The notes: generated from the letters alone by a model not told the origin. A DNA stretch of 64,000 nt from an uncultured Kiritimatiellota bacterium (GCA_934635225.1 CAKTYZ010000003.1:99210-163209), one strand, 5' to 3'. Numbered from the stretch's first letter, positions 9,952 to 37,613 are shown. Numbers and translations are program-made.

Positions 9952-12900
9952 TTAAATGGCCGTCACATCCCATTTCTCGGTCGTGGGCCTCGCCTCAAGC
10001 TTGAAACCCTGCACATCCTTCAGGCGAAGTTCGGGATGAAGTTCCTCCGCCTTCCACAGGCGCAAAACCGGACCGTCCACGCCTTCGGCGCGCACATCAC
10101 GCAAGTCAAGAAGCCGAACATAGGCCCCGCGCATGAATTCCCGCACAGGGTCCCGAAACGCCATTTCGCAAGCATTCAGGCGCAACACCAGCGGCACACG
10201 CGCATCCGCCCAGACGTTGAGCGGCTGACCGATGTTCCGAGCCTTGACTCGACAGAAGGCGATGTCCGCCAACGGTGCGCCCTTCTGCCAGATTTCATTG
10301 CCGGAAAAATTGTAATGGAGAAAACGGTCCGCTCCGTCAATCTCGCAGTCTTCGACGACGATATCACCCGGAGGATTGCGAATCGGCTGAAGGAAATCAG
10401 CGAAATAGGTCCAGAACGAAAGCAAATTGTGACGTCCGATTCCCTGGCAGTCGTTCCCGGCAATCTGATCTGCACGCGGCAGGGTATTGCGAATCGGCCA
10501 CTCACCCGGCCCCCAGACCTTGACCCGCCGCACACGCACATGCGTGCCGCCGAAACGAAAGGCGCTGCATGCCGTGTTGAGACGGCAGTCCTCAACCAGC
10601 ACATCCGTGTTGTCATACCCCGCGATGCAGTCGTCTCCGCACCGGATGTCGCAATTCCGAACCGTCACGCGATCGCACCCGCGCATATGGACACCGTCAT
10701 GTCCGCCACGTATGGTCAAGTTCTCGAAACAGAGGTCCGCGCACGTATTGAAGTGATTCGCCCAGTTCCCCGTGCGCCGAAGCTCGATGCCGCGCACCAA
10801 GACGTTCGTCGATCCAAACGCATTGATGCCATGCGCCCCCCGAAAGCCCTCCTCGCCCTGCGGATCGAAAGAGTTGTTTCCGTCGATCACACTTCCGCGC
10901 TCGCCGAGAATCACCACGTTCGTCGCCGCAACAAGACGGATGACGCCGCGATTCCAACGCGCTGCAGGATTCGTGAGCGGATGCCGATAGTCCTTCGAAC
11001 GCTTGGCGATGGGGAGCCACAACGCCTGCCGCGCCGAAGCGAGGACTCCCGGCGGCAGAGGCTCAACCTCGTCGGCCTCGAGAATGTCATACGCATCCAA
11101 ATCCCGCGAAGCGGAGAGGACGGCATTCTCGAGCAAATGAAGCGTCACGTTCGACCGCACACGCAAAGACGAGATCCTGTGGACTCCCGGCGCAATCTCG
11201 ACTGTTCCGCCTCCCTGCCGCCACACCGCATCAATCTGGCCCTGAATCTCCGCCGTTTCATCGGTCAGCGCGTCCGGAAGCCATTTCTTGACCCGTTTCC
11301 AGTCGAACGGCGGTTCACCATAAAGGAAGTGATTCACATAAGGCTTGCCATCCAGCGTCGCATCGATCTGGATGACGCCCTGACCTGAAAACGCTACAGA
11401 GCCCAATTCGACCTTGCCATTCGCAGGAATCCGGAAGGTCTTCTCCAGCAAGACCGTCTCCGTCTCCAAGTCCGTCAAGCGCGCCGTGCCTTCTATCGGA
11501 CGACGCGCGTCATTCACCGCCCACGCCTTGTGGTCATCGGTCACGCAGACGATTTGGTCGCGCTGGGCGTTCTTGAGCGCGAAGTAGGCGCGCTTCTTGC
11601 CGCCATACCAGTCCACGACCGCGTCCGAGATGACCGGCCAGCCGTCTCGCACGTTCCACCAGATCAGCCCATTTGAGCGCGTGAACTTACGGCTGCGGAA
11701 GAGTTCGCAGAACGTCTTCATCGCCTCGGCTTGAACGAACTGGCTCTGCGCAATGAACGTGTCGAGATCCGTCTCGACACCGCCAAACATCAAACGGACC
11801 TGATTCGTCATGAGCGAATTGCGACGCTGTCCAAACGAGCCGACACGCCAATCAACCGCCTTGAAAACCCACTCGTCGTTCCAGCGAAGTTCCGAAGGAT
11901 TCTTGAGAAACGACGCCGACGCGGTCACCCATGGATAGACATTCGACGCGGTCATCATCCGTTCGAGAGACGCGCGATTCGGGCATCCATGATACCCCAT
12001 CTCGGAGACGAACCACGCGGGGCTATTCGTGTAGTAGTCCGTCTTGTACGCGCCACGTGCCCCCCAAAGATGGTCCTCGGACGGCTGGGCGCGCCTCGCG
12101 AAGACATCCGGCGAGACATACGGCGAACTCGGCAGATAGGGCCGCGTCACGTCGAACTCGTAGATGACATCCGCCAGCGTGCGACGACTGTTGCGGTCAC
12201 CATTCGGGTCGCGTCCCAAAGCCCCGAGCTGCCACGACGCCGCCTGGTCGTTCTCGTTGTTGCCGCTCCACAAGACAAGCGACGCGCGGTTGCGCAAACG
12301 CAATATGACCGACCGCGCCTCGGCCTCCGTCTGCTTCGCGTAGTCGTCCCCCTGCGGGAAGACGCTGCACCCGGTCATGAAGTCCTGCCAGACCATAAGG
12401 CCGTTCGCGTCACACCAATCGAAAAACGCATCCGGCTCATACACGCCACCGCCCCAAACACGGACCATGTTGCAGTTCAGGTCCTTAAAGAGTTCCAGCG
12501 TCTCGACAATCCGGTCTTTCTGCCGCGACGGAATCGCGTCAAGCGGAACCCAGTTCGACCCTCGGACATAGCAGGGCTCGCCGTTGATCTTGAAGAGGAA
12601 CTGTCCGGGACGCTCGGGGCCGTAGACGTCTTCGCGCACAAGCTCAACCGTCCGCACGCCAATCTTCTCCGCATGCGAGGCCAGAACACGCCCGTCATCG
12701 CCCTGCACCTCAAAACGCGCTTCATACAGCGCGGGTTCGCCAGAGCCGCGCGGCCACCAAAGATCAGGGCGGTCCAGACGAAGCCGCAAATTAGGGAAAT
12801 GCCCCGTCAGCGTCTGTTCGGCCTTCGCCGCGAGCCTGCCGTTCCGCGTCAGCGTCGCGACAATCTTCGCATGGTCCAGCGTGGAAAACGGCGACCGCAC

Positions 12901-26739: not shown

Positions 26740-26790
26740 GTAGTATAGCATCCTCGCCGCGCCAAGGTCCACTACTCAAATGAGTAGTGC
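26740..26790 (-). promoter_or_regulatory. conserved 30-bp palindrome-containing motif plus TATACTAC -10 box (copy 2 of 3) upstream of the GH116 gene
   Basis: On the minus strand: GCACTACTCATTTGAGTAGTGGACCTTGGC, 13 nt, TATACTAC, 8 nt, ATG(26731). The 30-mer is identical at 35972-36001 and 42472-42501. Confidence 0.55.
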
Positions 26791-28151
26791 GTCGTCTGCG
26801 CGGCAGTTGGTGCTTGGACTACTGACCCGACAGTTCGCGCGTCGGAGACCGTGTCCATCGTCTTTGACAACGAACACAGCAAACTCATCCAATCCGGGAT
26901 GTAGTCACCCGCTCCTTCGATTCTAATCACATTCTCCACCTTGCCAGAAATCTCCGGGAGAGAAGACAGCGTGCCGACGATGATGACCTGCTCGGCGTCC
27001 AGCCTCAGATCCATTCGCTTCGGCGAAAGCCAGATCGTCTTTTGCCGTCCCCTTCGTCCGGCATCGTCCGCCTCTCCACAGACAACAACGACCTCCGCCT
27101 CGTCTAGGATTTGCCGTGCGTCTTGCACAATCACAAATGAAGCCGTCGGGAAACCTGTCAAGAACTCGCGTATTTCTCGCGGATACATTTCACCGCCAAG
27201 AACTTTTGAATCCGGCACAAGCCAGAACAATGGGTTCGTTCGCCCAACTTGGATGCCGTAATTTCGCTTCCTGATCAGCGGCGAACCGTCTTCGCCCTGC
27301 AATACAAGTGCCGCACTCGCCACACATCCAAGAAATCCCGTCAGGCCAATTCCCCAAAACAGTGCAAGTCTCAAAAAACTCCACCGCAGAGAAACAAGCA
27401 CACAAACAAGCGTCATTAAAGGAATTACCCACAAACACCAACTTTCACAGACCGAACTAAACAGAGCCGCCACAAAAAGTGCAACCCATTCCGCCCAGCA
27501 CAGCCAAGCTCCCTGCCGACGTCCGACAATAAAACCAAATGGCAGTACAACACTCCACCCCAACAGCCAGACAACGCCTCCGACAATGCCCGTTTCGACA
27601 ATCCACGTCAAGTGGCTGTTAACCAGAGTCCGATAGCGTTCCTTGCGATCCAAAGGCTGATACCACTGCATATAAGCCTCGCCTGAGTTCCCGATCCCCC
27701 AGCCGAACGGTGCGTCCAACATCATACGAGGTGCTGTCTGCCAAAGTTCAAGACGATTGCCGACAGAGCGATCTTCACGCAAGAACTCAGGTGCCAATCG
27801 TCCGACAACCCCCATCTGAATGGACAGCAGGCAGAACCCCACCACAACCGTCAAGAGGCTCGCCTTGACAAGCGTTCTCATGCTTTTCATGCGACGCAAA
27901 ACCACAAGTGCCAATGGAACAGAGGCAACTGCCAGTGCAACAATTCCACCTCGTGAGAACGTGTGCAGAAGAATGTACAGAGAACCCACAGCAAGCGCAG
28001 CTCCAAGAATACGGGCAAATCGACGAGCGGAACATGCCAAAGCCAATCCGATCAGAACCAGTTCGACAGCCAACACAGCCAGCTTGTTCGGATTGTCGAA
28101 CCCGAACTGCCAACGCACAATGCCATTGTAAAAGAAAGAGGCCAACAGCAT
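26772..28151 (-). CDS. O-antigen ligase / Wzy_C-family polytopic membrane protein
   Basis: 459 aa with multiple TM helices. Periplasmic-loop motif FGWGIGNSGEAYMQWYQ...RTLVNSHLTWIVETGIVGG matches the Wzy_C / WaaL signature (GxGxGN ... HNsyL..ETG). The last 6 codons run into the 30-bp motif. Confidence 0.55.
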   Translation of the reverse strand: MLLASFFYNGIVRWQFGFDNPNKLAVLAVELVLIGLALACSARRFARILGAALAVGSLYILLHTFSRGGIVALAVASVPLALVVLRRMKSMRTLVKASLLTVVVGFCLLSIQMGVVGRLAPEFLREDRSVGNRLELWQTAPRMMLDAPFGWGIGNSGEAYMQWYQPLDRKERYRTLVNSHLTWIVETGIVGGVVWLLGWSVVLPFGFIVGRRQGAWLCWAEWVALFVAALFSSVCESWCLWVIPLMTLVCVLVSLRWSFLRLALFWGIGLTGFLGCVASAALVLQGEDGSPLIRKRNYGIQVGRTNPLFWLVPDSKVLGGEMYPREIREFLTGFPTASFVIVQDARQILDEAEVVVVCGEADDAGRRGRQKTIWLSPKRMDLRLDAEQVIIVGTLSSLPEISGKVENVIRIEGAGDYIPDWMSLLCSLSKTMDTVSDARTVGSVVQAPTAAQTTHYSFE

Positions 28152-28157
28152 ATGCGA

Positions 28158-29861
28158 TTACTCGGCCTTCCACAATTCCGCTATCGGGCGGCTGGGCAGC
28201 ATCACGCGATAGGCATCGGGAATCTCATCGCCTTGCGCACGTGCGACACAGCGCAGATTCACAACATCACCAACCAGCGGAGCCGAATCAAATAACGTGC
28301 GCCAATTGACCGCTGCCGAACGCCGCGTTCTGTCTAGCGCCAACTGAAACACGGCCCGTCCCAACCGTTCTGCCGCGCCACACCCCGAATGGCCAAGCCC
28401 CGGATAGGCTCGATAGAGAATCGGGTATTCCTTATCTTTAGCCGCCTTGAAGAACGCAAGGGAGCGTTCGTAACCACATTCATTCTCACCCGTCGTGAGG
28501 CACCAGAGGATAGATGCGCCTCCGCTCGTCGGCTCATCGAAACTGCTTGGAATGTGAATGTGAACGGCCAAAAACCGCTCAGGCTTGCGCAAGGCCAGAC
28601 GCTGTGCATACTGCGCGGCGCCCGAATACCCCCAAAGCAAAAACCGCACATCAGGAATTCTTTCTTCCCGGACAAGACCATCTACACACTTTGACCACGC
28701 TTCAGAAACCTGATCAAACGCACGATCTGCCGTGCGCGCCTCTTGTCGCGTGAGATCCGTCCAGTTCTTGCGCGGATTCCACAGATGCCGCGCGGAGCCC
28801 CAGGCGACGACTGCAAGCTTGTTGCTCTCGGCAAAGGCGACCATGCGCCCGACCTCAGAGGCAATATTCCCCGTGACAATCTTCGCAGGGATGTCGTCCG
28901 GACTGTTCGCAAGCAGGCTCAGGCAAAGCACGCCTCGCGGGATCTCGTTTCTTCGTGTGCGCAGAAAGACTGTCAGGACAGGCTGAGCCGTCGGCTTTGC
29001 CCTCATAGTCCGACGGAGAATTTCAATCTTGTCGCGCCTCGTCAAGCTTCGCCAACGCAGCAACAACTCTTCCGACGGAAGCCAAAACGAATTGACGTCC
29101 TCCGCTTTTGGTAGACGATTCCCTCGTGTGCCCGTGATGGCATTCGCCCAAACGCCCCCTTCTGCACGGCGACGTCCTTGCAGTTTTAAGATCTCAAGAA
29201 AATAGGCTCGCACAAAATCTTCTAAAACCGCACTACGACTGTGACCAAGCCCCGGAACATCCACCCATGTCCACCGTCGAGCGGCTGCGCGCCCATCATG
29301 AAAGTGCGACAGGCAAGTACCATAACGAAAATCTTCCGTTCCGCAGGCTACAATGCCCGGCGGCCTTTCGCCCCCAATCTGCGACAGACCCTGCCACCAA
29401 CCAGCGGAAGCTGCGCACCACGCCGTGACACGTGAAGGGAACTGTTCAGCGAAACTTGCGGCAAAATGCGCGCCGCCGGAAAACCCGTAAACAAACAGCG
29501 GCAACCGTCCCAATCCGACGGAATCAAGAAACGTCAACAATTTCAGGCCGGATCCTGACCGCGCATCGTAGTAGCCATGTCCCTGTTTCAAATCCGCAAC
29601 AGGGGAACGGAAGGTGACGGCAACCAGTGCTATCGCGTTTGACTGCGCGAACGAAACCCACGCCTTTTCTTTGAGATACACCGAGGCATCGCCATTTGCG
29701 CCCGCAAGCACCACCATGACCGCGCGACAATTCTTCACCTCGCAGACAGGATGGATCAGTGCCTCGAAATGCACTTCTTGCGGCTGATCCTCCGCACGGA
29801 TCGTCACACAGAAGATTGCCGCAAACGCGGACACGAGCAACATGAAAGACGCAGGCTTCAT
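28158..29861 (-). CDS. secreted tandem alpha/beta-hydrolase (two esterase domains)
   Basis: 567 aa with a signal peptide. Two nucleophile elbows, GFSGGA and GYSGAAQ (GxSxG), each followed by a His near the domain end (GLGHS.. twice). Confidence 0.55.
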   Translation of the reverse strand: MKPASFMLLVSAFAAIFCVTIRAEDQPQEVHFEALIHPVCEVKNCRAVMVVLAGANGDASVYLKEKAWVSFAQSNAIALVAVTFRSPVADLKQGHGYYDARSGSGLKLLTFLDSVGLGRLPLFVYGFSGGAHFAASFAEQFPSRVTAWCAASAGWWQGLSQIGGERPPGIVACGTEDFRYGTCLSHFHDGRAAARRWTWVDVPGLGHSRSAVLEDFVRAYFLEILKLQGRRRAEGGVWANAITGTRGNRLPKAEDVNSFWLPSEELLLRWRSLTRRDKIEILRRTMRAKPTAQPVLTVFLRTRRNEIPRGVLCLSLLANSPDDIPAKIVTGNIASEVGRMVAFAESNKLAVVAWGSARHLWNPRKNWTDLTRQEARTADRAFDQVSEAWSKCVDGLVREERIPDVRFLLWGYSGAAQYAQRLALRKPERFLAVHIHIPSSFDEPTSGGASILWCLTTGENECGYERSLAFFKAAKDKEYPILYRAYPGLGHSGCGAAERLGRAVFQLALDRTRRSAAVNWRTLFDSAPLVGDVVNLRCVARAQGDEIPDAYRVMLPSRPIAELWKAE

Positions 29862-32170
29862 TTTCTCAGGACAAGATCCGGTGCATAGATGATGTTATCC
29901 TCGCTTTTCGGAAGTTCAGGCTGAACCTCTCTGGTCACAAGTTCCCGCGTCCGCCTATCCAGCAAGTTCCGCTTGCTTCGCAAAAGCGCAATCACCTCCC
30001 TGACCGGTTTGGCGTTCCGCTCGGAGATCAACTTGACTTCAGTCCGCGTCCCATCCGTTGTCTCAGACGAAAACGTGTCGGCTCCTTCATACAGGCCACC
30101 TGAACGCATCTCGCCGAAATCGCCACGCGAGAAATAGGACATGAGCGAATGAACCCTGACCGGCGGAAGGTGTTCAAACCGATACCGCCCCGCACTGTCG
30201 GTTTTCGTCCACCGTTCAGGATACGTCACAAGTTCAAGTCCTGGCAAGAAAGTCCCCTTGATCCGAACGCCGCCCTGCGGACGTCCACGCTCATCGACAA
30301 CTCGCCCCGAAACAGTGACCATCATGGACGCGGGGAACACCTCAACGGCAAGATGCACGTCATTCGATCCCTTTGTAAAACGTCCGTCAGGCAGAATCCG
30401 AAAACGCAAGCCATCAAGACGCTCCATGAGCAGCACGTTCTGCTGATCGACTCTCCAGTCTCCCGGTTCAAGATCCACTCCACGCTCCTTGATGCAATCG
30501 ATTTCCAGATGATGTGCCTGTCCACCAGATCCAACGACATCAATCCCATACTTCTCTGTTGGCGGAGGACACATTCGTTCGTAAAACCGCGCCAACGCCA
30601 CAGACATCTTTTCGGGCGTATCCGCAACTTTCAATTCCGCCAAATCAAACGCCGTCACGTCGGGATGCACAACGAACCCATAGAAACTCGTATTTCGAGC
30701 CGCCTCCCTGGTCACTTCCTCCTGAGTCTTAATCTGCGGCTCAGGCCGTTTGACTCCTTTCTTCACATCTTCATGCCATTTCACGAACTCTTCCGCGTTT
30801 GGGACAAAGCGATTGACAATCTTGCCATTTCGTACGCTGGCAACCTGTTTTCCTGTTGACGTATACAGGTAGTCGCAATCGCTCTTCTCGTCTCCGCCGC
30901 TCCGAGTCCGCAACAGTCTTCCATTCTTGACGTCAAACCAGAACTCGACAGAAAGACCTGTTTTTGGCATGATTTTGCAATAGGTCAAGCGACCTGTTTC
31001 CATGTATCGGCTCTCGGTTGTCGTGCCGGATTTCCGATCCGTCTCCAGCGTCATGGACAACGCGCCCTTTTCGTCATAGGCGTATTCAGTCCGACTGCCA
31101 TATCCCTGCGAATATGTCGTTTCCAGCCATCGCTTCTTGCCGCGAAGATTCTTGCCCGATGTGAACACGCGCCAGACACGCCGACATTCTTTCCGTTCGC
31201 TGACTCTCATGCCCGTTTCGAGATTCGCGTACTCCTCCTCCGTCTCGCCATCTGGTCGCTTGCGGAGAATGTGCGCATTTCGCCGCTTCGCATCGACTTT
31301 CGTGATGACATAAGTCCAGTCGTTCAGCGAAAGGATCTGCCGCGTCCCTAAGTCATACGCATAGTTCCGCTCTCCATCCGAGAAAGTCGCCCGCCCTTTC
31401 TTTGCCAAGCCATGGACAATCCGATACGTCCGTCCGCCAGACTTCAACTGGACAACGGACATCCGCTCTTTCTGAAGCCCCCACTGTCCATTCGCATTCA
31501 GACCTCCGACACGCACGGGTGCCAAAAGGACTTCAGCCCTTCCGCCATCCGTAAACGCAATCGTCCGCATTTGGCCGCTCTCCCTGCCGCCCGTTTCCAT
31601 CCGGCACAAGACCTTGCCGCCACAGACCATCTGCTCGAAAGTCCCGTCCGCCGAATAGCGGAACTCGACCGACAGCCCTCGCGTGTTCATTCTCACGAGC
31701 CGACCGTTCCTGAAAACGAGGTCGGGGAGCTTCTTCTCCAATCGCCAATAGAAGCGAGTCTCGCCGCCGTTCGTCACGCAACCGGAACCACGGCGTCCGC
31801 GCCACAGGTTCGGGCGTTCCTCCTTCCTGAGCCAGAACTTCCGCACAATTCCGTCCGGGCTGTGCATCACAAGACAGTCCCGACTGACAGGATAGATTCG
31901 CGACTCAAACCAGGGGATGCGCCAACCGTAGCCCAGAGTCGTCTTGCCACTCGGCTCTTCGGACGACCAGTAGGCATAGACCGTGCATTTCTTCGGCCCG
32001 AACGACAACGTACCCAACGGATATTCGGCGATTGCGTGACCAATGGCATCCGTCCCCTCAATTGCACTGTCCGCCAACGCCGCTCCACTGTGGAGCGGCA
32101 TCCTCATCCGCCCACCCTGCGACACACAGCCGACGCAAGCAAAACCAACGGCTAAGACAATGCGTTTCAT
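29858..32170 (-). CDS. lipoprotein with C-terminal CarboxypepD_reg-like (transthyretin-fold) domain and conserved ..NIIYAPDLVLRK tail (paralog 1)
   Basis: 770 aa. Lipobox LAVGFACVGC. Near the C-terminus VTVSGRVVDERGRPQGGVRIKG..YRF is a CarboxypepD_reg-like beta-sandwich. The tail is shared with 32177-33094 and 33559-34482. Confidence 0.4.
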   Translation of the reverse strand: MKRIVLAVGFACVGCVSQGGRMRMPLHSGAALADSAIEGTDAIGHAIAEYPLGTLSFGPKKCTVYAYWSSEEPSGKTTLGYGWRIPWFESRIYPVSRDCLVMHSPDGIVRKFWLRKEERPNLWRGRRGSGCVTNGGETRFYWRLEKKLPDLVFRNGRLVRMNTRGLSVEFRYSADGTFEQMVCGGKVLCRMETGGRESGQMRTIAFTDGGRAEVLLAPVRVGGLNANGQWGLQKERMSVVQLKSGGRTYRIVHGLAKKGRATFSDGERNYAYDLGTRQILSLNDWTYVITKVDAKRRNAHILRKRPDGETEEEYANLETGMRVSERKECRRVWRVFTSGKNLRGKKRWLETTYSQGYGSRTEYAYDEKGALSMTLETDRKSGTTTESRYMETGRLTYCKIMPKTGLSVEFWFDVKNGRLLRTRSGGDEKSDCDYLYTSTGKQVASVRNGKIVNRFVPNAEEFVKWHEDVKKGVKRPEPQIKTQEEVTREAARNTSFYGFVVHPDVTAFDLAELKVADTPEKMSVALARFYERMCPPPTEKYGIDVVGSGGQAHHLEIDCIKERGVDLEPGDWRVDQQNVLLMERLDGLRFRILPDGRFTKGSNDVHLAVEVFPASMMVTVSGRVVDERGRPQGGVRIKGTFLPGLELVTYPERWTKTDSAGRYRFEHLPPVRVHSLMSYFSRGDFGEMRSGGLYEGADTFSSETTDGTRTEVKLISERNAKPVREVIALLRSKRNLLDRRTRELVTREVQPELPKSEDNIIYAPDLVLRK

Positions 32171-32176
32171 CTATAT

Positions 32177-33094
32177 TTACGGCAAGGCGATATCTGGCAC
32201 ATAGATAACGTTGTTCGTGCTCACGGGAAATCCTCTAATTGGCGCTTTCAGAGGATAAGGCTTTCCTTTCTTTCTCTCATAGGCAGACACGATTCTCTCT
32301 GCAGATGTCCTCAGGGACGCTGTAAGTGTCAAGACTTCAACTTCTTTCACCTGTAGGTCTCGCTCAATCCCCTCTCGAATCCCTATACGTACGGAAAGAG
32401 GGGAATCCTCAAAACACGTTCGTCTCAACATATTCGTATTCGCCATAAAGACCGCCGCATCATTCAACGACGGCAATCTTAACCCCTCACAACTCCAATA
32501 GCCATCTTGTCTTGACACTGTGAACATTGCGGAGACTTTTTTCAGATTCTCATTCTCTGAATATGGAAATTGCATAATTTCAATTTGTCTCCCCGCAACG
32601 GGATTCCCATTCTTGTCTACGCAGCGTCCCTGTAGTGTCAGATTTTCTCGGTACAATTCCACGTAACAACTTTTTTCTAAAGGCATCTTTGATGCCATCC
32701 CAAAGTAGCGAATCTCCTTATCTTTTATAATCTCCACAAAGTCTGCAACAACCCAATACATTGAAGAGGATACGTCTGGCATTACGATGGAGAACCATCC
32801 TTTCTGATCGGAACTTCCCCTCGCAACAACTTTGCCATCGGGAAACGACAGAACTTGCACATTGGCGGAAACCACACGACGACGAAAGCCATTTCTCTTT
32901 GAGAATCGTTTTTGAGCCTCATTCTCAATAACAACTCGCAAGGACTCCTCGGCCGATTGGTCGTATGCGGCTGCAATCTCATTTGCCGTCAACTCATCGA
33001 CTCGCCATACTTCACCTTCTATCTTTGTTGCGCGACAGATGTAGACACCACAAAAAAGCAACATCATCGTAACACAAAATTTTTTAAAAAGCAT
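32177..33094 (-). CDS. lipoprotein, CarboxypepD_reg-like domain, conserved ..FPVSTNNVIYVPDIALP tail (paralog 2)
   Basis: 305 aa. Signal/lipobox MLFKKFCVTMMLLFCGVYIC. LQGRCVDKNGNPVAGRQIEI motif. Lower-GC DNA. Confidence 0.4.
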   Translation of the reverse strand: MLFKKFCVTMMLLFCGVYICRATKIEGEVWRVDELTANEIAAAYDQSAEESLRVVIENEAQKRFSKRNGFRRRVVSANVQVLSFPDGKVVARGSSDQKGWFSIVMPDVSSSMYWVVADFVEIIKDKEIRYFGMASKMPLEKSCYVELYRENLTLQGRCVDKNGNPVAGRQIEIMQFPYSENENLKKVSAMFTVSRQDGYWSCEGLRLPSLNDAAVFMANTNMLRRTCFEDSPLSVRIGIREGIERDLQVKEVEVLTLTASLRTSAERIVSAYERKKGKPYPLKAPIRGFPVSTNNVIYVPDIALP

Positions 33095-33111: not shown

Positions 33112-33543
33112 TTATTCAACAGTATCACCTTGTAAACAAGCATCAGATGCTTCGCAGACATCTTCTGTTCCGCACGAATCATTCTCACGACACAGATCTT
33201 CTTCTTCACATCTATCTTGAAGACAGGGCTCATCACCAGCAGGCATTGACAGAAGGCAAGAATCTGCATTTGCACGACCACCAGGACAATCATCGGAATA
33301 CTTCAGTTCTGGTAAACAAACGTCTTCCGTGTCTCGACCACCTGGGCAGGTGTCGGATTCTTCACTCTCTGAGGTTGCTGGTTGACAGAAGTCCTGGCTG
33401 TGTCCACCTCCAGGACAGAGAGGTGGCAGAAATGGAGAATCTGTCGCCAGCACTGTGTCCGTGAAGGTAAAGTGTGCGAATCCACCAGCCATCAAAATTT
33501 GAAAAAGTCGATGCGCGAACTGACGACAAGAGATATTCTGCAT
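33112..33543 (-). CDS. Cys/Asp-rich repeat peptide (candidate RiPP precursor or secreted metal-binding peptide)
   Basis: 143 aa (start uncertain). Three D-x-C-P-G-G repeats (LCPGGGHSQDFC, DTCPGGRDTEDVC, DDCPGGRANADSC), then five hexads DRCEEE DLCREN DSCGTE DVCEAS DACLQG D, i.e. (DxCxxx)5, which is CxxxD spacing. Fifteen nt downstream of a gene and 17 nt upstream of the next one in the same operon as a radical-SAM/SPASM gene. Confidence 0.45.
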   Translation of the reverse strand: MQNISCRQFAHRLFQILMAGGFAHFTFTDTVLATDSPFLPPLCPGGGHSQDFCQPATSESEESDTCPGGRDTEDVCLPELKYSDDCPGGRANADSCLLSMPAGDEPCLQDRCEEEDLCRENDSCGTEDVCEASDACLQGDTVE

Positions 33544-33558
33544 TGTAAGTATTCCTTT

Positions 33559-34482
33559 TTATTGCAGAACCAGATCCGGCACATAGATGACATTGTTCGT
33601 GCTGACTGGAAAATTCGTCATCGGATTCAAACGTTTCATTTTCTTCCCCGATTTACGTTCCGTGGCGGCAATGGTCTTTTCTACCGCCCTGTGGTTCTCA
33701 TCCGTGACATTGGGGACAACCCGTTCAGCATCATATGAACCAAAAGGTTTGCGCCGCGCATATATCCCCAATTGCAAAGGATAGTGACTGACCTGCCAAT
33801 TGTCCACGATATTCGTATAACAGATGTAGGACATCAAAGGGATGATCGGAGGAGAGGCAAGCCCGTCTACACGCCATCTTCCAAGCGTATCCGTCACCGC
33901 CAGTTGTGTTGGACAAAGACGGCATTCCTCCTCCGTTTCTCCAGACGTAATCGGATGCACATAAACAAAAACGCCCTGTGCCGGAGTACCGTCTTTCTGC
34001 ACACACCTTCCCATTGCTGAAGCATATGAACGCATCATGGTTATGTTCGCTTCATAATATGCCGCATTACGCCTCTTATATGTCCGGGACACCCCAACAT
34101 ACAAGACAGGTCTACCAAACTCCTCACGGACAACCTTACTATAGGCTCGCCATAACGAATCTTTCCCAGGCATTACAACAGAATAATTTCCATCCTGATC
34201 GACCTTTCCGCGACCAACAACCTTGAAGTCGGGAAGCGTCTGTATCTCAACCGTCGCACCAACGGGAATGGTCATATATTTGATGCCTTGAGCATTTTGT
34301 CGCTCCATGATTTGCCGTGCGGCAAGTTCAGGGATACGTGCACCCGTTGTCGCATATTCCTCAGCGACTTCCGCAATGCTCGGCGTCGCCTCAAGTCGCA
34401 CCCAGCCCTTGACAACATCTCCACTTGCATTTACAGCAACTAATAAAGATGCAACCGTTCCCATCAATTTCCGTGCTTTCAT
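33559..34482 (-). CDS. secreted protein, CarboxypepD_reg-like domain, conserved ..FPVSTNNVIYVPDLVLQ tail (paralog 3)
   Basis: 308 aa. The ORF track fuses this with the upstream radical-SAM reading frame. The real start MKARKLMGTVASLLVAVNA (ATG 34482) lies 13 nt after the radical-SAM stop. AMGRCVQKDGTPAQG motif. Confidence 0.45.
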   Translation of the reverse strand: MKARKLMGTVASLLVAVNASGDVVKGWVRLEATPSIAEVAEEYATTGARIPELAARQIMERQNAQGIKYMTIPVGATVEIQTLPDFKVVGRGKVDQDGNYSVVMPGKDSLWRAYSKVVREEFGRPVLYVGVSRTYKRRNAAYYEANITMMRSYASAMGRCVQKDGTPAQGVFVYVHPITSGETEEECRLCPTQLAVTDTLGRWRVDGLASPPIIPLMSYICYTNIVDNWQVSHYPLQLGIYARRKPFGSYDAERVVPNVTDENHRAVEKTIAATERKSGKKMKRLNPMTNFPVSTNNVIYVPDLVLQ

Positions 34483-34495
34483 GATTCTATTCCTT

Positions 34496-35610
34496 TCATT
34501 GTTTTGCGTACAAGGACGCAAACCATGCCTCCTGCATAATCCAACGTTTTGAATCCTCACAATTCCGCTCAGACAGGGCAAATGTTCCGTCCGGACGAGC
34601 GACCTCCCACGGGCATGGGCCTTTGCAAAACGGGTAGGCCCAGCATCCGAAGCAATGTCCTTTGACAAGCTCGCGATACTTACGCCAAAACGTCTGACAC
34701 TTTTCAACGTCAGGGCCATCCAAGACAGATCCAACAACCCAGTTCTCCATGCCGACAAAACGGTGACATGGATAGGGCGTTCCGTTCGCCCCGACCGTCG
34801 TCGTCCCGCGACAGGCGCCGCATCGAAAGGGTGAAATCGGCTCTGCCTCCAGTTTCTTCGCGCCATCAGCCTTTTGATTCCTGCAACGGCCAGATCAAAC
34901 GACCCCGTTCCCGTGCGCGTCGGGCACTGCCCGTCATGGCGTTCCTTCGGCCCGTCCAGACTGACCATCAGACCAAAGTTGTATCTCTTGATGACAGAGA
35001 TCACGTCATCGTCAATGAGCGTTCCATTCGTCGTCATCGAATAGAACACCTTCTTGCCATGAAGCTTCGCCAACCGCTGACTGTATGCCACCGCGAACAG
35101 CAAGACCTTCTTGTTCATCAGCGGCTCACCACCAAAGAACGTGATCCCAACCTCCTTTGAACGTCCGCTGACGGCGAACAGCCAGTTGATGGCCGCACGG
35201 GCAATCGTCTCGCTCATTCGGCCTTGATTTGGCACTTCATCGCGACACGTCCCGCAATAGCAATACCGACACGCGAGATTGCAGACCTCTGATAGGGCAA
35301 GCTCTAATTTTGTCCACGGAGCCTCATAGCGAAGTCGCAACAGTCGATCAAATTCCGCATCCGTCGGAATCGGCTGTTCACACGGCTCAAAAAAGCCCGA
35401 CTCCTCCAAGGCTGATATTTCACGCCTCAACCCTTCGTTCTCAGGCGACGCCTGTTCACCTGCCGCTCGCCGTTCCAAATGGGACTTTGCTTCTTGCGAG
35501 ATTTTCAACGGGCGTTTCAGCCCCCTATGCGCGACGAACGAATCGCCCTGATATGAAAAGACATGATAGGGAACTTCCTCAAGAATCCGTTCCATAAATT
35601 CAACCTCCAT
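34496..35610 (-). pseudogene. radical SAM / SPASM-domain enzyme (peptide-maturase-like) with an apparent frameshift near 34850-34895 and a shortened core; possibly a pseudogene or assembly indel
   Basis: Frame A carries ..LELALSEVCNLACRYCYCG (CX3CX2C), GITFFGGEPLM and SLDGPKERHDGQCPTRTGTGSFDLAVAGIKRLMA (an anSME/SPASM-subfamily block). It then becomes Arg-rich nonsense. Frame +2 opens at 34894 and reads KKLEAEPISPFRCGACRG..(x14)..C ... KGHCFGCWAYPFCKGPC ... C, i.e. SPASM CX2CX5CX3C clusters, ending at 34496. There are about 110 aa ahead of the CX3CX2C, which could be an RRE-type N-domain. The core-to-SPASM spacing looks about 50-90 aa shorter than in anSME/PqqE-type enzymes. Confidence 0.55.
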
Positions 35611-35971
35611 ATGCTCGCGCCAACACTCCAACTGAAGACGAGAACCACACAGATATCGCCACATATGCAATAACATGGAAAAGTATACCTTATTTTCATT
35701 TGGCTTGTCAATCATGCGACCATGACAAATTAGAAACCACGACAGTAGATGCAAGTCTCCGCAGGTGTGGCATCGCGCGGAGGGGCGGGAAGTGGCGCGA
35801 GTGAGGAGCGAGGGTTTGCAGACGTCGAAGGGGTCTCGCCCGCAGCCCGTGGTCTCGCCGAGGCATGGCAGGCTGAAGCCGGACGGTTGTCTTCAGAAAG
35901 AAGCGCAACCCCGAACGATGAGACCGAGCGAACAGCTTCCCGCTCCGACGCGCGCACTGTCAAGCCGACAT

Positions 35972-36038
35972 GCCAAGGTCCACTACTCAAATGAGTAGTG
36001 CCGCGCACGACATCAACAACGCCACAGTTTGGTATACT
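35972..36038 (+). promoter_or_regulatory. conserved 30-bp motif (copy 1 of 3) plus TATACTAC -10 box upstream of the sensor-kinase gene (near-leaderless start)
   Basis: Plus strand: GCCAAGGTCCACTACTCAAATGAGTAGTGC (35972-36001), 31 nt, TATACT (36033-36038), 7 nt, ATG 36046. The motif orientation is inverted relative to the two minus-strand copies. The same motif could also serve the divergent radical-SAM operon. Confidence 0.5.
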
Positions 36039-36045
36039 ACACGCC

Positions 36046-36978
36046 ATGAGACGATGCGTTTACCTTCTGCTGGCCGGCCTCGCGCTGTTGCCGTCCGCCC
36101 TGCTGTCGGCGCCGCCCGAGCTGACAGGCGTCGGCGGCGACGGACGCCTCGACGCCGACAGCGTCTTCGTGCGGTCACCGTGGTGGCTACACACGGAACT
36201 CCTCGTCATCATCGGCGTCCTGCTCGTCGTCCTCGTCGCCGTGAGCGCCTGGAACCGCTCGATCCGCATCGTCGCCCGGCGGCAGGCGCACCGGCTCGCA
36301 GAAGAGGCGCGGCGGCTCGCGCAGGAAGAGACCGCCCATGCGCGCACGCGGCTGAAGGTCGAGGAGCGCACCGAGCTGGCCGTCGAGATCCACGACTCCG
36401 TCTCGCAGGCCCTGACCGGCATCGCCCTCCAGCTCGAAGCCGCCCTCGCCACCAGTCGGCAAGACCCCGCGCGCGCGGAAAAAAGCCTCATGACGGCGAG
36501 TCAGATGCTGGCCTCCTGCCGGCATGAACTGCGCGGCTGCCTCTGGGACCTCCGCACGCGCACCTTCGAGGAGCGCGACCTGACCGAAGCCCTCGTCCAG
36601 ACGCTCGCCCCGCATCTCAAGGACGTCCGCGCGCACGTGCGCTTCAACGTCTCGCGCAACCGCCTGTCCGAAAGCACGACACACGCGATCCTCAAGATCG
36701 TGCGCGAGCTGACGGTCAACGCCATCCGGCACGGACGAGCCACGACCCTCCGCATCGCCGGCGAAATGTCCGACGGTGCCATCCAGTTCTCCGTCACAGA
36801 CAACGGCTGCGGGTTCGATGCGGCGACCGCACCAGGCCCGCGGGACGGGCATTTCGGCCTGCAGGGAATTCGCGAACGTCTCCGCAAATGCAAGGGCACG
36901 CTGACCTTCGATTCCGGCCCGTCCGGGACGCGCGTCGCCGTCACGATGCCGCAGGACCTCGAAGAGGAGGATCCATGA
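36046..36978 (+). CDS. sensor histidine kinase, NarL/LuxR-partner type (HisKA_3 + HATPase_c)
   Basis: Signal/TM segment, second TM, then EIHDSVSQALTGI (HisKA_3 H-box) and the N/G boxes (NAIRHG, DNGCGF, GLQGIRER). Stop overlaps the response-regulator start (ATGA). Confidence 0.8.
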   Translation: MRRCVYLLLAGLALLPSALLSAPPELTGVGGDGRLDADSVFVRSPWWLHTELLVIIGVLLVVLVAVSAWNRSIRIVARRQAHRLAEEARRLAQEETAHARTRLKVEERTELAVEIHDSVSQALTGIALQLEAALATSRQDPARAEKSLMTASQMLASCRHELRGCLWDLRTRTFEERDLTEALVQTLAPHLKDVRAHVRFNVSRNRLSESTTHAILKIVRELTVNAIRHGRATTLRIAGEMSDGAIQFSVTDNGCGFDAATAPGPRDGHFGLQGIRERLRKCKGTLTFDSGPSGTRVAVTMPQDLEEEDP

Positions 36979-37613
36979 GCCCCTCCGCCGCGCCAAAGAA
37001 AATCCGCATCCTGCTGGCGGACGACCACCTGATCGTCCGCATGGGCCTCGCCACCATCATCGCCCTCGAACCAGACCTGGAGATCGTCGGCGAGGCTGAA
37101 GACGGCTCCGAGGCCGTCCGCCTCGCAGACGCACTCGCGCCAGACGTCATCGTGATGGACATCATGATGCCGAACGTGGACGGGGCGGAGGCGACACGGC
37201 AGATCCTGTCTCGGCATCCGACGGCGAAGATCCTGTTGCTGACAACGTTCAGCAAGGCGGCGGAGATTCGCACTGCCCTCGGACACGGCGCACGCGGCGC
37301 CCTGCTGAAAGACGCCTCCCGACGGACGTTCGTCGAAGCCATCCGCCGTACGGTGGACGGACGACAGACGATCAGCCCTGAAATCGAACGCGAGATCGTG
37401 CTGGCCCAAAGCCTTCCGCCGCTCTCCGTTCGGCAGAAGACGATCCTCGGCTATGTCGCCAAGGGCTTCAGCAACCGGGAAATCGCGCGATTCGAGAACA
37501 TTTCCGTTGACGGTGTCCGTGCGCACCTGAAGACCATCTTCGCGCGTCTCGGAGTCGCCTCCAGAACGGAAGCGGCAACGACAGCCCTCGAGCTGAAACT
37601 GATCGACGCTTAA
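36975..37613 (+). CDS. NarL/LuxR-family response regulator
   Basis: KIRILLADDHLIVRMGL receiver domain with the phospho-acceptor Asp context VIVMDIMMP, and a C-terminal LuxR HTH (LSVRQKTILGYVAKGFSNREIA). Confidence 0.85.
   Translation: MSPSAAPKKIRILLADDHLIVRMGLATIIALEPDLEIVGEAEDGSEAVRLADALAPDVIVMDIMMPNVDGAEATRQILSRHPTAKILLLTTFSKAAEIRTALGHGARGALLKDASRRTFVEAIRRTVDGRQTISPEIEREIVLAQSLPPLSVRQKTILGYVAKGFSNREIARFENISVDGVRAHLKTIFARLGVASRTEAATTALELKLIDA

Follow-up and report, generated by a model that had tools for sequence, protein, structure and literature searches.

A probable decaying copy of a conserved radical-SAM/SPASM maturase and Cys-rich substrate module in an uncultured Kiritimatiellota bacterium

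Introduction

PapB, the SPASM-type radical S-adenosylmethionine (radical-SAM) maturase of the freyrasin precursor PapA, links Cys to Asp in C-Xn-D motifs (n = 0-6) and leaves the transposed D..C order unprocessed (PMC9413430); PapB can reportedly also join Cys to a residue at the C-terminus (PMC12373016). QhpD, another radical-SAM/SPASM enzyme, makes several Cys-Asp/Glu thioethers, including Cys41-Asp49 (C-x7-D), in the leader-bearing protein subunit QhpC, in the cytoplasm and before periplasmic export (PMC7876137). Here we analyzed a 64,000-nucleotide stretch of DNA from an uncultured Kiritimatiellota bacterium (GCA_934635225.1, CAKTYZ010000003.1:99210-163209; hereafter the window, with positions counted from its first letter), in which a radical-SAM/SPASM enzyme gene and a 143-residue Cys/Asp-repeat protein had been predicted to form a ranthipeptide-like locus for a peptide that is made on the ribosome and modified after translation (RiPP). 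We find that the enzyme gene is a pseudogene, and that the region is probably a copy, now in decay, of a conserved module with two components, composed of a radical-SAM/SPASM enzyme and a Cys-rich substrate, with accessory genes specific to the Planctomycetota-Verrucomicrobiota-Chlamydiota (PVC) bacteria.

Judged from sequence, the enzyme family would work like the PapB, QhpD and SCIFF (six cysteines in forty-five residues) maturase families and yet is a member of none of them, because the score cut-offs of all three are missed. It resembles PapB, its best curated model, in joining a SPASM enzyme to an N-domain of the RiPP recognition element (RRE) type, and tandem C-x3-D-x hexads occur both in PapA and in the window substrate. 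Unlike PapA, which is a short peptide, the substrates described here are 90-450 residues long; their unit is D-x-C at a spacing of 10, with hexads only at the C-terminus, and their leader is twin-arginine-like. The hosts are PVC bacteria and Chloroflexota, as against Firmicutes for PapB, and the PVC neighbourhood (Wzy_C, hydrolase-like and YD-like proteins) is unrelated. The QhpD/QhpC pair resembles the present one in its modification of a leader-bearing protein ahead of export, in the C-x7-D span of Cys41-Asp49, which is that of the decads found here, and in the rank of the QhpD model, second or third best for the enzyme family. In contrast with QhpC, which carries three rings in a Trp/cysteine tryptophylquinone context and leaves by an ABC transporter after leader cleavage, the substrates have no such context, bear a leader resembling a twin-arginine translocation (Tat) signal and hold up to ~30 potential rings; Pfam and NCBIfam searches found no qhpA/B/E/F/G and no dehydrogenase, subtilisin-like or ABC-exporter genes in the operon. 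The thioether-forming SCIFF maturase CteB (5WGG) is the closest solved structure by sequence and by fold, whereas SCIFF substrates are peptides of ~45 residues with six Cys that are cross-linked to Thr. Finally, anaerobic sulfatase-maturating enzymes (anSME) share the SPASM fold and act on Cys in a protein substrate bound for export; they differ in having no RRE domain, and the substrates described here are without the C/S-x-P/A-x-R motif.

Results

The enzyme gene of the window lies on the minus strand in two pieces that are in different reading frames:

35610..34496, minus strand: radical-SAM/SPASM remnant, overall
34859..35610, minus strand: N-terminal part, with an RRE-like N-domain and a CX3CX2C half-barrel, corresponding to residues 17-258 of the intact relative P0004
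34852..34862, minus strand: deletion junction, with 268 nt absent relative to the intact alleles of loci L109 and L022, a loss of 86 codons and of the frame
34496..34858, minus strand: SPASM remnant, in another frame than the N-terminal part, corresponding to residues 345-463 of P0004, with its stop codon at 34498..34496

The N-terminal part is 83% identical by tblastn to its counterpart in P0004 (470 residues, encoded at L022) and matches Pfam Radical_SAM (57 bits), positions 4-148 of the NCBIfam PapB model (139.7 bits) and positions 3-224 of the nif11-peptide maturase model (146 bits); the N-domain is thus retained. The SPASM remnant, 71% identical to its own counterpart, matches positions 234-319 of the PapB model (68.2 bits) and SPASM TIGR04085 (46.7 bits), and residues 259-344 of P0004 are absent from the window. 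Nucleotide alignment to the intact alleles of L109 (P0005) and L022 places the 268-nt deletion at ~34859/34858, with the junction ATGGCGCG|AAGAAACTGGAG, and in the intact alleles the deleted segment is bounded by the similar 6-mers GCGAAA and AAGAAA. The residues lost include T261, R263, T265, H268, P269, G284, R287, G291 and D303, which are invariant in 62 family members. A CX3CX2C motif and C-terminal SPASM cysteine clusters had been read as parts of one gene. The former is present as CNLACRYC, ~110 residues from the start as described, and the SPASM cysteines are encoded downstream, but in another frame, so that the two do not belong to one product. The 731-residue open reading frame (ORF) at 35754..33559 (minus strand), in which the radical-SAM frame, past the frameshift, meets no stop in the SPASM DNA and continues in frame into a 307-residue gene, is a frameshift read-through artefact, and so are the public 552-752-residue "Radical_SAM" gene calls on these contigs.

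The same lesion occurs in at least 10 gut metagenome assemblies from different studies. Since the ten loci L001-L010, which come from independent metagenomes, show 99.9-100% identity and no gaps across it, the lesion is biological and not an assembly error. That the frameshift nonetheless arose in sequencing or assembly, or that programmed frameshifting or a two-piece enzyme bypasses it, might be argued from the good conservation of both halves, with ratios of nonsynonymous to synonymous substitution rates (dN/dS) of 0.07-0.08 between strains. We regard this explanation as wholly improbable: the sequence is identical in assemblies produced by different studies with different assemblers, the loss amounts to 268 nt and not to a homopolymer slip, and the missing barrel strands and invariant residues are beyond rescue by frameshifting. 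The maturase of a ranthipeptide system is therefore not intact at this locus, being split between two frames with 86 conserved residues deleted. Because the enzyme gene is a pseudogene, the locus cannot mature the peptide by itself, contrary to its description as a functional maturation locus. The window copy is a remnant that was probably inactivated recently.

Placement of the enzyme family was carried out with two intact members, P0004 and P0086 of Akkermansia, which were scored against NCBIfam models; intact relatives are 470-480 residues long. The scores are given for P0004 and P0086, respectively:

PapB model (NF047865): 253.3 and 258.4 bits, cut-off 340
nif11-peptide maturase model: 214 and 223 bits, cut-off 518.7
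QhpD model (TIGR03906): 198.7 and 238.2 bits, cut-off 453
SCIFF maturase model (TIGR03974): 204.8 and 216.1 bits, cut-off 425
anSME model (TIGR03942): 111.2 and 116.5 bits, cut-off 349

PapB ranks first despite the missed cut-off. The closest sequence in the PDB is CteB (5WGG; E = 3e-43, 25% identity). An AlphaFold2 (AF2) model of an intact relative, built from 62 homologues with a predicted local distance difference test (pLDDT) score of 91, has an N-terminal beta3-alpha3 domain and aligns with CteB over its full length, N-domain included (468 columns, TM 0.75-0.80), whereas its alignment with anSME covers ~385 columns and leaves the N-domain outside. The RRE-like N-domain suggested in the original prediction is thus supported by the model. 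Taken together, the NCBIfam ranking, the CteB sequence match and the full-length alignment of the model with CteB place the family, as far as sequence and predicted structure can tell, in the thioether/ranthipeptide clade, with a putative RRE-like domain and outside every curated equivalog; thioether-forming SPASM maturases score far above anSME, and no grouping with the latter was found. A scan of one genome per species detected the family in Kiritimatiellia, Verrucomicrobiota, Planctomycetota, Lentisphaerota, Hydrogenedentota, Nitrospirota, Chloroflexota, Myxococcota and one cable bacterium.

In 35 of the 36 informative loci, in which the enzyme is intact and the DNA downstream of it long enough, the ORF directly after the enzyme encodes a leader-bearing Cys-rich protein. 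Such pairs were found in Verrucomicrobiota (including Akkermansia), Kiritimatiellia, Planctomycetota, Lentisphaerota, Hydrogenedentota, Chloroflexota, Myxococcota and cable bacteria, and in the Chloroflexota loci nothing in the neighbourhood is shared apart from the pair. The peptide type is thus co-conserved with the enzyme across phyla, as had been anticipated. In the window the two genes are not neighbours, since the 307-residue gene (34482..33559) lies in between. The leader shared across clades spans ~35 residues and reads [ST]-R-R-x-F, then 8-13 residues, then G-x2-3-[HN]-F-x-[LF]-[LV]; a conserved leader and an enzyme N-domain that aligns with that of CteB would together provide the recognition elements of a RiPP-type system. 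Substrates range from ~90 residues with four Cys (rumen clade) to ~450 residues, and when 1.84 billion cluster representatives were searched with a profile, only 45 family members were returned, mostly of 350-450 residues. The 394-residue protein of L022, the intact locus nearest to that of the window, has the same leader, ~32 D-x-C units and a hexad C-terminus homologous to that of the window protein, and the same design was found on Akkermansia muciniphila contigs (348 residues) and in a groundwater Verrucomicrobia metagenome-assembled genome (~390 residues, an uncalled ORF).

Asp occupies the position two residues before Cys for 94% of 197 Cys in PVC substrates and for 91% of 190 Cys in Chloroflexota substrates. 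The modal Cys-Cys spacing is 10, and a spacing of 6 is restricted to the C-termini of PVC forms. The family-wide motif is consequently D-x-C at spacing 10, and the Cx3D hexads first taken as the defining feature are a C-terminal speciality of some PVC members. Pfam and NCBIfam searches, even at E<=5, gave no family for any substrate protein apart from sub-threshold Tat-signal matches, and no NCBIfam precursor model matched. Most homologues read [ST]RRxF, and some reach 17-18 bits with PF10518 (cut-off 22.7) and up to 15 bits with TIGR01409 (cut-off 16.7); neither TAT_signal model matched the window peptide, which reads S-C-R-Q-F. The literature searches, in which subscription journals were thinly covered, found no description of the system, and the substrate and enzyme family appears undescribed in the libraries and papers that could be searched.

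These observations bear on the possibility that the substrates are not cross-linked by the enzyme and act as secreted envelope proteins, either metal-binding or disulfide-rich, the enzyme serving another target, e.g., in anSME-like maturation of the numerous sulfatases that gut bacteria of this kind possess, or inserting or repairing a cofactor. Acidic Cys-rich repeats and Tat-type leaders are typical of exported proteins loaded with cofactors or metals, the window peptide persists despite its dead enzyme, and the enzyme scores below all curated cut-offs. This explanation seems distinctly unlikely, given that the enzyme and a leader-bearing protein remain adjacent in nearly all informative loci of at least six phyla while the rest of the neighbourhood changes, that the enzyme has a predicted RRE-like leader-binding domain, and that the scores with the anSME model do not reach half of those with PapB or QhpD. 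In addition, a search around the substrate Cys for the C/S-x-P/A-x-R sulfatase motif found none, and there is no Arg at +4.

Several further features of the substrates were observed. A conserved C-terminal tail D-x-[V/P/A]-E-COOH (DTVE, DYVE, DHVE, DLVE, DIAE, DQPE) ends many substrates, of very different length, with the following carriers:

33124..33115 in the window; locus L027; rumen loci L035-L043; proteins P0279, P0287 and P0311

Some short rumen-type substrates have low-complexity spacers between leader and core, namely (KD)n in L034 (8149-8490) and (PEH)n in L044 (~10400-10740). The Chloroflexota substrates (L048-L063) have a C-terminal hydrophobic stretch followed by a basic tail, e.g., GAVAALGAAALLRPRKEDKPSA, that is absent from PVC forms and in its sequence resembles a membrane anchor or sorting signal.

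The substrate gene of the window encodes a short protein with the following parts:

33112..33543, minus strand: 143-residue Cys/Asp-repeat substrate protein, composed of leader, decads and hexads, with the tail DTVE
33543..33442, minus strand: leader, residues 1-34, with SCRQF where relatives read SRRQF
33420..33256, minus strand: CPGG decads, residues 42-96, three CPGG units 10 residues apart
33216..33124, minus strand: five DxCxxx hexads, residues 110-140, DRCEEE DLCREN DSCGTE DVCEAS DACLQG D

The 143-residue ORF with its five terminal hexads, and the five Cx3D pairs that result, agree with the original prediction. Together with four C-x7-D units, they make the protein a precursor with repeated Cys-Xn-Asp/Glu motifs. 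Within the core (108 residues past the leader), 10 of the 12 Cys have Asp at -2, a count reached in none of 100,000 composition-preserving shuffles, and five Cys at period 6 were seen in 53 of 100,000 such shuffles. The Cys6 codon is TGT (33528..33526), and a sister strain reads S-R-R-Q-F at this position. Homologues of the protein include P0003 and the 394-residue protein of L022, which is 56% identical over the N-terminus and homologous at the C-terminus as well. We considered that the length of 143 residues might result from a recent internal deletion of a 394-residue gene, and dropped this view because a distant 143-residue homologue in the same gene order (P0311, L110) and the ~90-residue rumen forms indicate that short forms are established variants.

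An intact freyrasin-like small-peptide locus, in which the SPASM enzyme would cross-link the five Cx3D pairs of a 143-residue precursor, could be read from the five exact Cx3D units, from the remnants matching the PapB model best among full-length-type models, and from the fact that PapB forms exactly such links (PMC9413430). For the window it is contradicted because the gene structure is broken, with the conserved residues gone and the frame shifted in every assembly of the lineage. The family substrate is usually a protein of 350-450 residues with D-x-C decads, and Pfam and NCBIfam show no RiPP-typical protease or exporter among the operon genes. Such a locus is thus very improbable here, and the window protein is better described as a short member of a family of mostly larger proteins with a twin-arginine-like leader than as a classical small RiPP peptide. 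Of the ranthipeptide-like locus originally proposed, the clade of the enzyme and the co-conservation of the pair stand, and the emphasis on Cx3D and the functionality of this copy do not.

The two genes belong to a tightly packed minus-strand operon spanning ~35610 to 26772, with the order, 5' to 3', radical-SAM/SPASM remnant, 307-residue, 143-residue, 305-residue, 770-residue, 567-residue and Wzy_C genes. Gaps of 13, 15 and 17 nt were recovered from the gene coordinates, within the 13-17 nt given before. The remaining features of the operon are as follows:

35682..35711, minus strand: sigma-70-like promoter match, TTGACA-18-TATACT, 11 of 12 consensus positions, by consensus match alone
33559..34482, minus strand: 307-residue secreted-looking protein, paralogue of the 305-residue protein, with the C-terminal end FPVSTNNVIYVPDLVLQ
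32177..33094, minus strand: 305-residue paralogue, ~30% identical to the 307/309-residue protein, with a weak CarboxypepD_reg-like stretch
29858..32170, minus strand: 770-residue protein with a C-terminal CarboxypepD_reg-like domain
28158..29861, minus strand: 567-residue alpha/beta-hydrolase-like protein with two G-x-S-x-G elbows (GFSGGAHF, GYSGAAQY)
26772..28151, minus strand: 459-residue Wzy_C (O-antigen-ligase-like) membrane protein, Pfam Wzy_C 63.8 bits, last gene of the cassette

The putative promoter lies ~70 nt upstream of the radical-SAM start, at the operon head, beside divergent two-component genes. The 307-residue protein has no Pfam, NCBIfam or PDB sequence match; it is 65% identical to the product of a 309-residue gene that occupies the same position in the intact locus L022, which is without the 305-residue paralogue. 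The description of three lipoprotein paralogues is not accurate for all three, the 307-residue protein having no Cys in its signal region. The N-terminal part of the 770-residue protein, for which a PDB sequence search gave no match, is homologous to a gene upstream of the maturase in other PVC loci, and its Akkermansia homologue has a faint YD-shell match. The 567-residue protein is conserved in PVC loci and divided into two genes in Akkermansia; its matches are weak (a PHA-depolymerase model at E = 8e-4, PDB alpha/beta hydrolases at E~0.1), and AF2 without an alignment gave a pLDDT of 36.6, too low for a fold search. The position of the Wzy_C gene is likewise conserved in PVC loci. The 307-, 305- and 770-residue proteins have in common a C-terminal motif N-[NI]-[VI]-I-[YF]-[VA]-P-D-[LI] (33559..33620, 32177..32240 and 29858..29920), which is also present in the L022 and L110 homologues.

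This operon context, including Wzy_C and the paralogues, had not been recognized as described; it is not idiosyncratic but conserved in PVC bacteria, Akkermansia included, where the pair is accompanied by four further genes coding for a YD-like protein, a beta-sandwich protein of the CarboxypepD_reg-like kind, one or two alpha/beta-hydrolase-like proteins and Wzy_C. The cassette has a G+C content of 53% (45-57% per gene), as against 64-68% in the flanking genes, and in the Akkermansia locus (L025:6714-14990) the accessory genes have a G+C content of 0.32-0.36 within a locus of 0.46. Because the G+C content of the cassette is below that of its surroundings and the cassette is found at different chromosomal sites in different genomes, its sequence suggests a horizontally moving island. 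Divergent ORFs beside the cassette, at 35998..37613 on the plus strand, are histidine-kinase-like and LuxR-type response-regulator-like, with a host-like high G+C content; these labels are putative readings of the sequence, and the pair is not linked to the cassette in other genomes. The window further encodes ProS, ClpB, isocitrate dehydrogenase and glycogen phosphorylase. ProS shares 84% identity with a protein of a Kiritimatiellae metagenome-assembled genome, and the exact matches all come from human-gut metagenomes, which points to a PVC bacterium of the gut, probably of the Kiritimatiellia, as host. PADLOC, run on the enzyme and six other proteins, returned only a generic viperin-type radical-SAM match to the enzyme and no support for a known defence system.

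Related strains carry other lesions. In L051 (2326-4140), a different, in-frame maturase deletion (TNGTL|YPCHRF) is accompanied by loss of the peptide, 305-residue and 770-residue genes. In L106-L108, an insertion of ~470 nt with terminal inverted repeats GGCTCTTCGGGCATAAGT ... ACTTATGCCCGAAGCC lies inside the maturase gene, after ...PKYF (L106:~1200-1680), and by its sequence looks like a transposon-like element of the miniature inverted-repeat transposable element type. The truncated protein P0047, encoded at the insertion-bearing locus, represents 40 member sequences. L012 and L013 (96% DNA identity) have a maturase deletion of the same length as that of the window with a slightly different junction, and also lack ~6.3 kb, a stretch that starts in mid-peptide and reaches the 3' end of Wzy_C (window 33322..~27000). 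Four forms of inactivation are thus seen in human-gut lineages, namely the maturase deletion, a second and different deletion, the transposon-like insertion and the 6-kb cassette loss. Since inactivation recurs in these lineages, the system may be dispensable or costly in the human-gut niche, as the pattern suggests.

Discussion

Our results describe a maturase pseudogene and a family of Cys-rich proteins that accompanies intact maturases elsewhere, and allow a mechanism to be proposed for the intact copies. Homology with PapB, QhpD and CteB leads us to expect that the leader docks on the RRE domain of the enzyme, which would then, in the cytoplasm, cross-link the sulfur of Cys to the beta-carbon of Asp. 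The most likely partner of each Cys would be the next downstream Asp, giving C-x7-D rings in the decads and C-x3-D rings in the C-terminal hexads. Because decads read C-x7-D-x-C and hexads C-x3-D-x-C, neighbouring rings would be one residue apart, and the simplest model is a string of rings. The same leader would then direct the acidic product, already cross-linked, to the envelope by way of Tat; a Tat-like leader, as read from the sequence, fits a product that is cross-linked before export. In the envelope, the YD-like, beta-sandwich, alpha/beta-hydrolase-like and Wzy_C proteins may act on or with the product. In the window, unless another maturase acts in trans, the 143-residue protein would be made unmodified or be en route to loss.

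The topology of the rings could be different. The cross-link might form within the D-x-C unit, between Asp i and Cys i+2, or reach a non-Asp acceptor, with a chemistry unlike that of PapB and QhpD. Such an arrangement would follow a logic like that of the NxxC beta-thioether enzymes. Across ~390 Cys contexts, the one spacing that is nearly invariant is Asp at -2, the next downstream Asp being 1-15 residues away, and rumen-clade cores are poor in Asp. On the other hand, the modal decad puts Asp at +8 from the preceding Cys, which is the C-x7-D span of Cys41-Asp49 in QhpC, and PapB failed on the transposed D-x3-C order (PMC9413430). We therefore consider this alternative rather unlikely.

Several points weigh against reading the region as a decaying copy of a thioether-forming, Tat-exported module. 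Scores below every curated equivalog cut-off leave room for another reaction, at a different acceptor carbon or residue or in a D-x-C intramotif ring, the thioether chemistry of the family being inferred by analogy with its homologues. The invariant feature of the substrates is Asp two residues before Cys, an order that PapB did not accept, and rumen-clade substrates have one D-x-C among four Cys, so that Asp may not be a universal acceptor. The twin arginine is replaced in the window (C-R), in P0311 (Q-R), in Akkermansia (R-G) and in L032 and L044 (R-K). Given these missing arginines and the sub-threshold TAT_signal matches, the leader may be mainly an enzyme-recognition element. As regards decay, the enzyme remnants, with the low between-strain dN/dS given above, show no signal of relaxed selection: either the gene was inactivated recently, or recombination has obscured the pattern. 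In the comparison of the window with L013, dS is 0.15-0.25 in the radical-SAM segment versus 0.009 in the adjacent 307-residue gene; the segments have different histories, consistent with a recombination mosaic, and we set this comparison aside as uninformative for relaxed selection. Finally, a second maturase may be encoded elsewhere in the genome, our search having covered this window only.

Probable decay of the window copy leaves the intact relatives, in some Akkermansia strains, gut and rumen Kiritimatiellia/Verrucomicrobiota, Chloroflexota and others, as a compact and testable enzyme-substrate pair whose leader combines RiPP recognition with a Tat-like signal. We tentatively propose, as something possible rather than probable, that these relatives constitute a new class of radical-SAM-modified proteins of up to ~450 residues with up to ~30 consecutive Cys-Asp thioether rings, in which the leader would double as enzyme-recognition element and Tat signal and a rigid, acidic "chain-mail" product would be delivered to the envelope for processing or anchoring by Wzy_C and hydrolase-like partners. 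If this were true, ranthionine-type thioether cross-linking would extend beyond small peptides and one dehydrogenase subunit, and would also build protein-sized, exported, polycyclic acidic polymers in Chloroflexota and in PVC bacteria of relevance to the gut, Akkermansia strains among them.

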